From Nanobdellota archaeon (lineage in GTDB: Archaea > Nanobdellota > Nanobdellia > Woesearchaeales > GW2011-AR4): a DNA stretch of 27,190 bases. The translations under genes and the position numbers were made by a program. Positions 21,970 to 26,395 of this stretch are shown one piece after another (positions within the stretch are counted from its first letter, which is position 1; each line of letters starts with the position of its first letter). The stretch covers positions 1-27,190 of the forward strand of contig JBBSWH010000019.1 of NCBI GenBank assembly GCA_038046385.1, written 5' to 3'. The notes under the pieces are model-generated. The model saw nothing but the letters and a program-made list of their open reading frames with translations. It did no database searches and was not told the DNA's origin.

Positions 21970-22905
21970 GTGTTTTATTTGAGAAAAATTGCTGTATTCA
22001 ACCAAAAGGGCGGTGTTGGCAAGACAACTACTGCAGTAAATCTTGCAGCAGGGCTTTCAAGGAACAATAAAAAAGTGATTCTTATTGATCTTGACCCTCA
22101 AGGGGATATAAGCGTCTGCCACAATGTAGATGCTAAGTACAATATTTACAATTTTCTTGTTGAAAATGCAGACATAAAAGAATGCACAAGCAGGCTTGGA
22201 AAAAATCTTGAAATAATACACGCTGACCACATGCTTGCAGAAGCAGAGCAAAGATTTTCAAAGGAAAAAGACAATGATTTCATCAGCAAGAAACTTTCTT
22301 CAATAAAAGATTATGATTATGTCATTCTTGACTGCGCGCCTTCATGGAGATTTTTGAACAAGTGCGCATTAAGCTACGCAACAGAAGTTATTATACCATC
22401 ATCGACAGATGTTCTTGGATATGCCTCTCTTCAAAAAACAATAAAAAGGATAAATGAATTAAGCTCTGCTGACCATAAGATTGAAGTGAGCTCGATAGTT
22501 CCAACAATGTATGACCAAAGAAGCAAATTGTCAAAAGAAATAATCAGCAAGATGAAAAATGAATCCCCAATGCTTGTATCAGAGCCAATAAGAACAAACT
22601 CAAAGCTAAAAGAAGCTCCAAAGTCAAAAATGTCTATATTCACCTACGACAAGAAAAGCACCGGCTCTGAAGACTACTGGAAGCTTGTCAAGCTTGTGCT
22701 TGAAAATGAATATATGTATGATGCTGCAATATCAAAAACAGAAAGAGAAAAGGCGCAGAAGGACTATTTTATCAACGGAAAAAAGAGAGAAATGATGATT
22801 GTCAATAACAAAGTAACATTCGGCTTCAGGTTTGTGACCAACGGGAACGAGCCTGTAAAGAATTTTGTAGGCCAAAAAAAACAAAAAAAAGGAACTGAAG
22901 CCTAA
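21970..22905 (+). CDS. parA: ParA/Soj-family ATPase with C-terminal extension
   Basis: NQKGGVGKTTT, IDLDPQG, LDCAPS and PTMYD motifs. The start may be the TTG at 21979. Confidence 0.88.
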   Translation: MFYLRKIAVFNQKGGVGKTTTAVNLAAGLSRNNKKVILIDLDPQGDISVCHNVDAKYNIYNFLVENADIKECTSRLGKNLEIIHADHMLAEAEQRFSKEKDNDFISKKLSSIKDYDYVILDCAPSWRFLNKCALSYATEVIIPSSTDVLGYASLQKTIKRINELSSADHKIEVSSIVPTMYDQRSKLSKEIISKMKNESPMLVSEPIRTNSKLKEAPKSKMSIFTYDKKSTGSEDYWKLVKLVLENEYMYDAAISKTEREKAQKDYFINGKKREMMIVNNKVTFGFRFVTNGNEPVKNFVGQKKQKKGTEA

Positions 22906-23348
22906 ATATCAACAACTATTGTTGCCATGTAGCCGGTTTTTTCCTTCTTTAATTCAAACATATGCATTGTAATTGCTTTTATGTCATTCTCAAGCTTTTG
23001 TTTTTTAGAATCTATTCCTTCTCCAAAGAGCGTTGCTTTCAGCTTGTTTGGCTTGCCTTCTTTAATCTCAACTTTAACTTTCCTGAAGACAATATATTTT
23101 GAATCCTTAAGAAACAAAATTTCTGAAAGAAAGTCATAAAGCAGGTTGTCAAGGTTTTTATGCTCAATCTCCACTTCTAGTTTTTCCTTGTCGCCAACTG
23201 ATTTAAGCTCTGCGCTTAACTCAAATATTGCAAGAGCCGAATTCTCAAAAACTTCATTTAAGTCTTTTCCGTATGCCTCATAGCAGATATCTGCAAGCGC
23301 AACATCCTCAAGAAACCTGTATTTCTTTTTGTCGTTGTTTATGTTCAT
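22902..23348 (-). CDS. Archease (RtcB activator)
   Basis: YRFLEDVALAD...AYGKDLNEVFENSA...LLYDFLSEIL...IKAITMH...VVDI. ATG at 23348, right after the ZIP stop. Confidence 0.9.
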   Translation of the reverse strand: MNINNDKKKYRFLEDVALADICYEAYGKDLNEVFENSALAIFELSAELKSVGDKEKLEVEIEHKNLDNLLYDFLSEILFLKDSKYIVFRKVKVEIKEGKPNKLKATLFGEGIDSKKQKLENDIKAITMHMFELKKEKTGYMATIVVDI

Positions 23349-23349
23349 T

Positions 23350-24099
23350 TCAATGCCCTTCAAACAGCTTACCAACAAACCATATCAAAGCAATTCCTAG
23401 GACCATCATCAAAAGCTGAAGAGAGGATTTTCTCAAATCTTTCTCTTTATGTATCTCGGGAATAAGGTCTGTCCCTGCAATGTAAACAAAGCCGCCTATG
23501 GCCAATGCAATTATGTAAGTATGCGAACCTTCCATAAAGCTTGAGAAAAAATAAGTAAGCAGAGCGCCAAGGACTGCAGTAAGCGCTGTCAGGAAATTGT
23601 AAACGAGCGCCTTCATTTTTGAAAATCCGCCGTAAATAAGAACTGAAAAATCAGCTATTTCCTGCGGAATTTCGTGTGCAATTATTGCGATAGTTGTTGC
23701 AATCCCAAGGCTAGTGTTGTTCATAAAACTTATTGCTATTACGGCACCGTCCAAAAAATTATGTATAGCATCTCCTACGAGATTAAGGTAAGTGAAGCTG
23801 TGCACTTCGTCGTGCTCCTCATGAGCGTGGTGGTGATGCCAGTGAAGGAATTTTTCCAGAACGAAAAAAGATAGTATCCCTCCGATTATCAAAAGAGGTA
23901 TAGACTCGCTGAATCCATTTTCTATGACTTCGGGAAGCAGGTCAAGGAATGCAACGCCTATCATAGTGCCTGCTGCAAAGCTTACAAGCAGGAAAAGCAG
24001 CCTGTTGAACGACTTCTGCTTATAGAATATGAAAAGCCCCAGTATTGAAACCAAAGAGACTGCAAGCACTGCAATTAAAATGTTGATTATTGTTTCCAT
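23350..24099 (-). CDS. ZIP-family divalent metal transporter
   Basis: SFAAGTMIGVAFLDLLPE, His-rich loop HWHHHHAHEEH, GDAIHNFLDG, AHEIPQEIADF and DLIPE. Confidence 0.92.
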   Translation of the reverse strand: METIINILIAVLAVSLVSILGLFIFYKQKSFNRLLFLLVSFAAGTMIGVAFLDLLPEVIENGFSESIPLLIIGGILSFFVLEKFLHWHHHHAHEEHDEVHSFTYLNLVGDAIHNFLDGAVIAISFMNNTSLGIATTIAIIAHEIPQEIADFSVLIYGGFSKMKALVYNFLTALTAVLGALLTYFFSSFMEGSHTYIIALAIGGFVYIAGTDLIPEIHKEKDLRKSSLQLLMMVLGIALIWFVGKLFEGH

Positions 24100-24100
24100 A

Positions 24101-25601
24101 TTAACCCTTAATATTTCCAATAGGCTTTAATCCGACAACCGGCTTTGAAATGCCAGCTTGGGCAACAGCATCAATAACCTCATTTATATTTTTGTATGCG
24201 AAGCCTGCTTCTTCTGCAAGGCCGGACATTGAAGTAGCCTTGACGTAAATTCCCCTTTTCTCCATGTCTTTCTGCAATTGCTCTCCGCGCACCTGGTGCT
24301 TTGCAGCAGCCCGCGACATTGTTCTTCCGCTTCCATGCGCTGTGCTTCCGAAAGTCTCGTCCATTGCTTTTTGAGTTCCAACCAATAAAAATGATCCTGT
24401 TTCCATTGAGCCGCCTATGATAACCGGCTGGCCTGTCTTCTGGAATATTTTTGCAAGCTCGGGATGTCCCGGAGGGAATGCCCTTGTTGATCCTTTTCTA
24501 TGGACAACCAGCTTTTTCTTTTTTCCGTCAACATTATGCTCTTCAAGCTTTGCAATGTTGTGGGCAACATCATAAACCATATTCATTTCAAGTTTTTCAG
24601 CATCTGTTTTGAAAACTTTAGAGAATCCTTCCCTTATCCTGTGCAAAATAACCTGACGGTTTGCAAATGCCATGTTTGCAGCGCATGCCATTGCCTTGTA
24701 ATAATCCTGACCTTCTTTTGATTGGAATGGCGCGCATGCCAACTCTCTGTCATAAACCTCTATTTTGTATTTTTTCATTACATCTTCAAAAATTCTTAGA
24801 TAGTCTGTTCCAATCTGATGCCCGAATCCTCTGCTTCCGCAATGGACCATGACAACAACCTGCTCCGGCGTTACAATGCCGAATTTTTTTGCCATAGCCT
24901 CATCAAAAATGTTTTCTGCTCTTGCAACCTGTATCTCGAGATAATGATTTCCGCTTCCCAAAGTGCCAAGCTGAGCTATCCCTCTTTCAAGCGCCTTTGA
25001 GCTTACTTTTTCAGGATCTGCCCATTCAATCTTGCCGTGGCCTTCTGTTCTTTCTGTGTCGTCTTTCCACCCATATCCGTTTTCAACGCACCACTTTGAA
25101 CCATCCGATATAATATCCCTGAACTGCTGCTTTGTTGCGTTTACAAACCCTTTTGATCCAACGCCGGATGGAACTGTTTTGAACAATGAATCAACTAACT
25201 CTTTTAATTTTGGCTGGACTTCCTTGAACGTTAAGTTTGTTGTAACAAGCCTCATCCCACAGTTTATATCGAAGCCTATGCCGCCTGGGCTTATGATACC
25301 TGTTTCTGAATCAAAAGCTGCTACACCGCCGATTGGGAAACCGTCAAGGGCTGAATAAGAAAGTTCTTACTCAGAATCCCCAGTGCCCATCCGGCATGCA
25401 GAACGAATACTTTTGAATTCCTGGCAAACAGGCTACATTAGTTACCTGATTGAATACTCCATTGTCCATTTCATCAAGGAGTTTTTTTGTCGCGTAAATC
25501 CTTGCTGGGACCAGCATGCCTTTTTTGTGCGATGTTGGAATTTCCCAGACAGTGTCGCTAACCTTATTTATCTCCTTGGGCCTCTCAAGATTGTGTTCCA
25601 T
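24101..25601 (-). CDS. rtcB: RtcB tRNA-splicing ligase in two exons (25601-25376 and 25344-24101); 489 aa after removing the 31-nt intron
   Basis: Exon 1 ends MPDGHWG. Exon 2 continues GFPIGGVAAFD...GGIGFDINCGMR, GTLGSGNHYLE, HCGSRGFGHQ, YDVAHN, HRKGSTR and STAHGSGR. SD GGAGG at 25608-25612. Confidence 0.92.
25345..25375 (-). other. Putative BHB-type mRNA intron in rtcB (31 nt)
   Basis: Minus-strand RNA reads GGGG AU^U CUGAGUAAGA ACUU UCUUAUUCAG CCCU UG^A, i.e. a 4-bp central helix, two 3-nt bulges and a 10-bp intron stem. Ligation gives GGA UAC GGU (G-Y-G). Confidence 0.85.
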
Positions 25602-25714
25602 TTAGTTCCTCCTTCCTGTTTTTGATTATTAAGCAATAATATAAAGAACCCGTATTGTTTCTCCAGGGTCCGAATAATTTAGAGTTGATTTGGTGCTTAT
25701 TTAAAGCTTATGGT

Positions 25715-26224: not shown

Positions 26225-26395
26225 GGGGCGTTAGCTCAGCCTGGGTAATATCAGGCTTGCCTGTGTTCAGGATAGAGCACACGGCTGAAGGCGGTATTCT
26301 GAGCTGAGAAATCAGCGATGAATGTTTGATACCGTGGAATCAAAAAGTGAATTTTTTGATGCGGAATGTCGAGGATTCAAATTCCTCACGCCCCA
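26225..26395 (+). tRNA. tRNA-Phe(GAA) with three introns: 26246-26273 (20/21), 26291-26330 (37/38), 26338-26366 (44/45)
   Basis: The spliced 74-nt product GGGGCGT TA GCTC AGCCTGGGA GAGC A CACGG CTGAAGA CCGTG GTGTC GAGGA TTCAAAT TCCTC ACGCCCC A forms a full cloverleaf. CCA is not encoded. Confidence 0.9.

Follow-up and report, generated by a model that had tools for sequence, protein, structure and literature searches.

Two kinds of described system come closest to the locus reported here, namely archaeal messenger RNAs that are spliced by the tRNA-processing machinery and free-standing homing endonucleases whose genes lie next to introns of conserved genes. To the first kind belongs the cbf5 pre-mRNA intron of the Desulfurococcales and Sulfolobales (Yokobori et al. 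2009, PMC2738675), which is described there as too short to encode a nuclease and whose origin is left open. The Haloferax volcanii HVO_1309 mRNA, which carries a BHB motif in its 5′ untranslated region, is likewise a substrate of the tRNA splicing endonuclease (PMC7714728, PMC10485636); in the available text of the former report cbf5 is given as the only earlier archaeal mRNA case, and in that of the latter at least two spliced archaeal mRNAs are counted, with more expected. The available text of PMC12397907 adds no further spliced mRNA case, and a term search of the available text of a 2026 preprint on Asgard tRNA introns returned no mention of rtcB, mRNA or homing. The second kind is exemplified by F-CphI, a free-standing homing endonuclease whose gene adjoins the intron-containing, conserved psbA gene of cyanophage S-PM2; the intron is reported to block self-cleavage and to gain mobility (PMC6083498, PMC2988022).

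Here we describe a 31-nt insert in rtcB, the gene of the splicing ligase, from a groundwater Nanobdellota archaeon (genome G000, 85% complete). The window is the whole 27,190-nt stretch of DNA that was analysed. The insert is apparently a real, conserved and unpublished mRNA intron of the splicing ligase gene, and it is best read as the mobile passenger of a homing endonuclease, a reading that joins the two known kinds. It differs from the cbf5 intron in that the host gene encodes the splicing ligase itself, the organisms are DPANN archaea, at least seven sites are used within one gene, a nuclease gene stands beside the intron, and it is known from sequence alone. It differs from the HVO_1309 motif in lying within a coding motif, and from the F-CphI/psbA pair in that a host-spliced 31-nt intron replaces the ribozyme and the putative cleaving enzyme is a LAGLIDADG protein encoded on a cellular archaeal chromosome. 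A search of published literature on rtcB introns and archaeal mRNA introns, which took in main texts and few subscription papers, found no paper on an rtcB intron.

The rtcB gene occupies the minus strand of the window (25601-24101), a strand that the preliminary description leaves unnamed, and it is broken into a first frame of 76 aa and a second one downstream. Exon 1 (25376..25601, minus strand) comprises 75 codons and the first base of a Tyr codon and matches positions 1-24 of PF01139; exon 2 (24101..25344, minus strand) matches positions 26-426 (E 1e-160) and encodes the remainder of the catalytic domain, including the predicted Mn ligands. The insert between them (25345..25375, minus strand), a candidate relaxed BHB (HBh′) intron, consists of a 10-bp hairpin and the 3′ strand of a 4-bp central helix and places stops in both exon frames. 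The exon-1 frame (25601-25371) is thus closed after 76 aa by an in-frame UGA, the exon-2 frame meets a second stop within the 31 nt, and the unspliced downstream frame (384 aa) begins past both Mn ligands of the DINC motif. The Mn ligands of Pyrococcus horikoshii RtcB include Asp95 and Cys98 (PMC9745838); alignment to that protein puts their equivalents in exon 2 and equates Tyr76 of the spliced product with Tyr70, five residues past Asp65 and upstream of Asp95 and Cys98. When 21 possible 31-nt removals were tried, that of 25345-25375 alone restored HWGYGFPIGG, and with it the conserved Tyr and a 489-aa open frame. The preliminary description of this DNA, which had reported a 31-nt frame-shifting insert with a UGA, a 489-aa spliced product and a 76-aa stub from the unspliced message, agrees with these results at each point.

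At the level of DNA, a contig of run X4 (study P2, a second study) covers 25232-25479 with zero differences, and so does run X1, a possible source of the assembly; runs X7 and X8, the other two of the four compared, have no coverage there. A PF01139 search of G000 (85% complete) found a single rtcB locus and no second one. No Rfam model matched around the insert even with E values as high as 1 allowed, and a group I or group II intron or another Rfam family was rejected on that ground and on the length of only 31 nt; the insert as a copy of a dispersed repeat was ruled out by the absence of a second copy in G000, where the closest other match has 10 mismatches over 31 nt. An exact exon-1 24-mer had no match in the metagenome contigs searched, and a sigma-70 promoter scan of the window was uninformative for an archaeon. 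Two genes downstream of rtcB lies the uninterrupted gene of archease, the RtcB cofactor (22902..23378, minus strand); between them, and overlapping both, is a ZIP-family metal transporter gene (23350-24120, minus strand), of possible interest as RtcB needs Mn.

On the mRNA strand the junctions fold much as first proposed, with a central helix GGGG/CCCU (4/4 pairs), bulges AUU and UGA of 3 nt each, a 10-bp intron-side hairpin (h′) and a weak outer helix. The register in which a BHB is cut, after the second base of each bulge, is also the sole register that restores Tyr in this gene. The intron alone folds with z = -4.7, which 0/200 shuffles equalled, and its 81-nt context with z = -4.2. The outer exon helix (h) has 2/5 pairs and falls short of the canonical hBHBh′ motif, so that the junction is assigned to the relaxed HBh′ form. 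The minimum-energy fold puts the G-run in a slightly shifted pairing register, and the exact 4-bp helix is therefore a permitted fold and not the single best one.

The rtcB gene was compared in 61 relatives, in all 43 genomes of the genus and in 401 genomes drawn from the order; unpublished genomes were included in the genus and order denominators only. A total of 46 inserts of 12-33 nt was recovered from 37 genomes in 12 families, at seven sites that form two clusters. Within the genus, 18 of the 31 genomes having the rtcB 5′ region carry an insert and 13 do not; nine carriers have it in the Tyr codon used in the window (Y48), and in the other nine it lies 7 nt farther upstream, where the His and Trp codons meet (W46). 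Among genomes of the order draw with an rtcB match, at least 22 of 386 carry an insert, a count made from the best 150 of 441 match rows with 57 genomes of split or weak matches re-searched. The preliminary description had proposed a search of relatives for insertions at the same Tyr codon with co-varying stems, and the window's site indeed holds 21 inserts from nine families (nine congeners and eight other families). The Y48 and W46 sites show zero co-occurrence in the 37 genomes.

Several features of these inserts are those expected of substrates of EndA. For 44 of 45 inserts the register with the best BHB pairing is also one that best restores the protein, one mis-parsed row being left out, and the exceptional insert restores GIGYD, with Tyr where the reference has Phe. 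Every one of the 46 contains a stop in the exon-1 frame, including all 28 that would otherwise keep the frame because they are 3n nt long, and lengths are spread over all three frames. At the window's site (n=21) the second central pair is G-C in 11, A-U in five, U-A in three and unpaired in two, and pairs 3 and 4 are G-C in 21/21; across families the intron strand of the central helix tracks the exon strand (GGGG/CCCU, AAGG/CCUU, AGGG/CCCU, UUGG/CCAG), and the first pairs of the intron-side helix co-vary across the same 21 inserts. In a slid-partner control, central pairs numbered 3.5/4 in register and 0.9-2.2 otherwise, a comparison that is partly circular because registers were first chosen by pairing. 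An outer helix of at least 4/5 pairs occurs in just five of 42 distinct junctions, and in three of those five the central helix has 2/4 pairs. The exons evolve under strong constraint, with dN/dS of 0.03-0.05 both with and without the intron among the 19 congeners passing the filter; a rerun on 28 genes agrees, save for one value inflated by a one-codon indel in G026. The spliced frames of carriers reach the normal end. The intron sequence itself is kept at 0.84-0.86 identity, compared with about 0.3 at synonymous sites, and one 33-nt intron is identical between two families.

The distribution of the intron is patchy. Its states are scattered over a quick RtcB tree, a clade of the Y48 carriers of the genus (seven rows versus 24) is rejected on the exon-2 tree (AU p = 0.0006), and the 61-row tree requires no fewer than 21 changes of state. 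A shared exon-1 tract, which co-conversion would predict, is present among W46 carriers (p 0.002), and none was seen for the Y48 type (p 0.87).

Several of the inserts deserve mention in their own right. The 12-nt introns of L029, L030 and L054 (G016, G001 and G153) combine a fully paired outer helix with an inner helix of 1 bp and lie near the lower size limit. By eye, many W46 and Y48 inserts share an apical TAG-loop-CTA or TAAG-loop-CTTA hairpin, and some of both types have the same TTAATT loop, a hint of one intron family. At L036 (G024) rtcB has two introns and lacks about 16 codons between two short repeats, which marks either a broken copy or a mis-assembly. At L037 (G011) two rtcB starts flank a gap of Ns, one intron-bearing and one intron-less, both apparently followed by the start of an intein; they may be two strains joined in assembly. 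L241 shows a further insert site 2 nt past Y48, with a 31-nt insert beside a 54%-identical endonuclease.

EndA, RtcB and archease were all found in G000. The EndA (C6:72116-72715) is a single unit of 200 aa whose closest match among solved structures is 3iey_A (E 4e-35), and neither a second EndA subunit nor an ATP-dependent Rnl-type ligase was found in this 85% complete genome. The case for splicing is weakest on the type of EndA: according to the available text of PMC5829648, efficient cleavage of relaxed HBh′ introns is confined to EndAs of the (alpha-beta)2 and epsilon2 types that have a specific loop. About 600 nt from rtcB lies a tRNA-Phe(GAA) gene (26225..26395, plus strand) that ARAGORN missed in its unspliced form; a motif scan found BHB motifs, and a cloverleaf results after removal of three introns at 26246-26273 (28 nt), 26291-26330 (40 nt) and 26338-26366 (29 nt). 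Introns 1 and 3 are at non-canonical positions and have the same geometry of a 4-bp helix and 3-nt bulges as the rtcB insert, so G000 must be able to splice introns of this kind.

We therefore regard the rtcB insert as very probably a host-spliced, EndA-type (BHB) mRNA intron, given the stops in all inserts, the co-varying helix pairs and the strong purifying selection on the exons. In each 3-nt bulge EndA would cut behind the second base, and the exons would be joined by RtcB and archease, an unspliced message yielding the 76-aa stub. If so, it follows that new RtcB synthesis very probably depends on EndA and on pre-existing RtcB, new ligase requiring old ligase.

The window also holds a trace of a nuclease gene. 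Just upstream of rtcB, and overlapping its ribosome-binding site (GGAGG, 25612-25608) and start codon, are the last 40 codons of a LAGLIDADG endonuclease gene (25588..25707, minus strand), a 3′-end relic that shares 77% identity with the intact G064 gene across 30 aa (E 2e-9; profile E 9e-11). In G064 (L050) the 292-aa LAGLIDADG gene (PF14528, E 1e-21) overlaps the start of a complete, intron-bearing rtcB, and the order of genes is an orphan rtcB 5′ stub ending at His-Trp-Gly, two unknown genes, the endonuclease gene and rtcB. Two further loci, making three in all, contain orphan rtcB stubs that end just before or within the intron motif. Three other LAGLIDADG-like frames occur in G000 (C1:60240-60935, C6:7691-8485 and C5:54442-55449).

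A profile built from 11 such endonuclease genes was used to scan 1.3 kb upstream of rtcB, leaving out intein-bearing genes and four loci with less than 400 nt of upstream sequence. A whole endonuclease gene was found at 11 of 34 intron-bearing loci and at none of 46 intron-less ones, and a whole gene or relic at 19/34 and 1/46, respectively; 15 of the 34 intron-bearing loci have no trace of it. The Fisher p values for these associations (3e-5 and 2e-8) ignore kinship, and reliance was therefore placed on a pair test. Among ten independent pairs on the 61-row tree, the endonuclease went with the intron in 7.2 and against it in 0.1 on average (median p 0.016); for whole genes alone the median p was 0.06, which is not significant. 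In a search that began with the endonuclease, its gene lies next to rtcB at 29 of 32 genome loci; the intron is present at 18 of those 29, or at 10 of 21 once loci already in the comparison set are left out, against at least 22 of 386 genomes in the order draw. Metagenomes contributed 61 endonuclease loci, 36 of them non-duplicate. For endonucleases with 60% or more identity to the query, the intron is present in 25 of the 26 neighbours whose motif is visible, including 11/11 new metagenome loci, and at L193 a 67%-identical endonuclease stands beside an intact (intron-less) motif. Below 60% identity, six of 14 new metagenome loci are intron-bearing and eight intron-less, and a quick parse of genome loci gave eight of 11 neighbours as intron-less. 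Odd motifs in intron-less genes near distant endonucleases were considered as immunity by substitution, an idea not adopted here, as the motif also varies where there is no endonuclease. No relative of the endonuclease was found in viral contigs, or in solved structures searched by sequence, and no member of its family was found beside cbf5 or carB inserts.

These observations suggest that the intron, given that it is spliced, probably spread and persisted as the protective allele of the upstream free-standing endonuclease, a form of collaborative homing. The endonuclease would cut an intron-less rtcB within the conserved DxHxGYG codons, and repair from the donor would copy both the endonuclease gene and the intron-bearing 5′ end of rtcB. 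By splitting the target site the intron would put an end to self-cleavage, and either of the two introns 7 nt apart would break the site. The endonuclease gene could later decay, as it seems to have done in the window, and the intron would stay, since nothing short of a precise deletion would restore the gene. In this scheme we infer that the message is spliced in vivo, that the endonuclease cuts DNA and does so at the site named, that the intron gives immunity, and in which direction transfer ran; taken as a whole, with host splicing as one layer and collaborative homing as the other, it is in our judgement the reasonably likely account.

Inserts of the same type are found in other genes. In cbf5, stop-bearing BHB inserts of 12-26 nt interrupt the Asp codon of GTLD in five of 14 congener loci fetched (39 genomes matched), these being L106-L110 (G062, G009, G001, G030 and G031), four of them with a full outer helix; the cbf5 gene of G000 is intact. 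The crenarchaeal cbf5 intron interrupts the same, catalytic Asp codon, as described in PMC2738675. An 18-nt stop-bearing BHB insert lies in carB of G001 (L139, near 12292), and carB matches of eight more congeners begin at model position 24-25 and one has an internal stop; these may be further inserts. No interruption was found in endA (34 genomes) or archease (36), and no stop-bearing insert in rpoB (37), where stops in three congeners are point changes and, of two splits, one comes from a gap of Ns and the other from a frameshift. When roughly a quarter of G001 (400 kb) was compared with G000 (about 230-250 gene matches each way), a comparison blind to inserts common to both genomes, three stop-bearing BHB inserts were private to G001 (the second rtcB site, cbf5 and carB) and none to G000. 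When G000 was scanned ab initio for BHB motifs, rtcB ranked third among 680 candidates, most of which were neighbouring genes; true introns are not separable in such a scan without homology. Inteins also enter RtcB of relatives (L040, L052, L059, L061-L063, L083 and L088), between N and C of DINC, with G243 having another between GYGF and C; these positions lie beside both intron clusters. They splice as protein and carry their own nuclease, whereas the rtcB insert has no coding capacity; an intein occurs in 0/9 genomes with inserts near DINC, numbers that are small.

It is also conceivable, if rather unlikely, that the intron is spliced but neutral, with tRNA-type introns as its source (reverse splicing being one route), and that the endonuclease simply parasitises the same conserved gene, hitch-hiking being all that links it to the intron. 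G000 is rich in tRNA introns, many distant endonucleases sit beside an intron-less rtcB, 15 of 34 carriers have no relic, and the Y48 type lacks the long shared exon-1 tract, all of which would fit such an origin. It leaves unexplained why close endonucleases stand beside an intron-bearing gene in 25 of 26 cases, at either of two sites 7 nt apart, and why the orphan stubs stop at or just before that very motif; nor does the insert have a second copy in G000 from which it might have come, the best other match differing at 10 of 31 positions.

A second account, which we regard as improbable, was part of the preliminary description: the intron is spliced, and selection has retained it for an autoregulatory loop in which the amount of ligase follows EndA activity or the supply of GTP/Mn. 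The dependence of RtcB on EndA and on itself stood up to comparison, with no Rnl-type ligase found to bypass it; regulatory feedback as the reason for the intron did not. That rtcB is a hot spot (18/31 congeners) and that endA, archease and rpoB are free of such inserts can be read in favour of a loop, as can the conservation of the intron sequence far above that of synonymous sites, the stop in all 46 inserts and the regulatory role proposed for the cbf5 intron (PMC2738675). The hot spot is explained by the link to the endonuclease, and inteins occur at the same two motifs. Moreover, 13 of 31 congeners lack the intron under the same exon selection, at least 21 changes of state have occurred on the tree, and cbf5 and carB hold like inserts without any self-reference. 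By our reasoning, the loop would be one of positive feedback and would not stabilise the ligase level. The XBP1/HAC1 system is similar in that a short, frame-shifting intron is removed by an endonuclease and a tRNA ligase; there, the nuclease is a dedicated one that stress activates and the role in regulation is proven, and neither is evident for the rtcB intron. The patchy presence of the intron, its carriers that form no clade, its tie to the endonuclease and the cbf5 and carB inserts thus leave an evolved feedback switch not supported by the sequence comparisons, and the self-dependence of the ligase is probably a by-product, not the reason for the intron.

That the ribosome passes the insert by frameshifting, read-through or bypassing, with no splicing, is very doubtful. 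The bypass signal of T4 gene 60 is a stop with a hairpin after it, an arrangement that the insert resembles, and a UUC codon occurs before the stop and again in exon 2. Yet a hop from UUC to UUC would lose the conserved Tyr-Gly, the insert carries stops in both exon frames, and the exon-intron pairs co-vary as EndA requires; with homologous inserts of 12-33 nt in all three frames and a stop in 46/46, no single recoding event fits. A pseudogene or assembly error, for which one might cite that G000 is a metagenome assembly of 85% completeness and that the carrier G024 also misses about 16 codons past the intron, is largely refuted by identical bases in a second study, inserts at the same base in nine congeners and eight other families, exon dN/dS of about 0.05 and the finding of no other rtcB in G000.

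Collaborative homing of a host-spliced intron, as favoured here, has several consequences. The ligase that seals such introns would itself be a widespread third host gene for archaeal mRNA introns, and in these archaea rtcB, cbf5 and carB can be mis-called as pseudogenes or split genes. The reading names a testable partner, a LAGLIDADG protein of about 290 aa with a predicted DNA target, so that the way in which BHB introns are gained could be put to the test by a single cleavage assay in vitro. If the self-dependence of the ligase is true, a cell that loses its RtcB protein would be unable to remake it from its own gene, and the on/off state would be inherited through the protein. More tentatively, BHB mini-introns in archaeal mRNAs may be selfish elements without ORFs that use host enzymes for excision and a neighbouring homing endonuclease for mobility; if that were true, the same reading would also explain the cbf5 intron.
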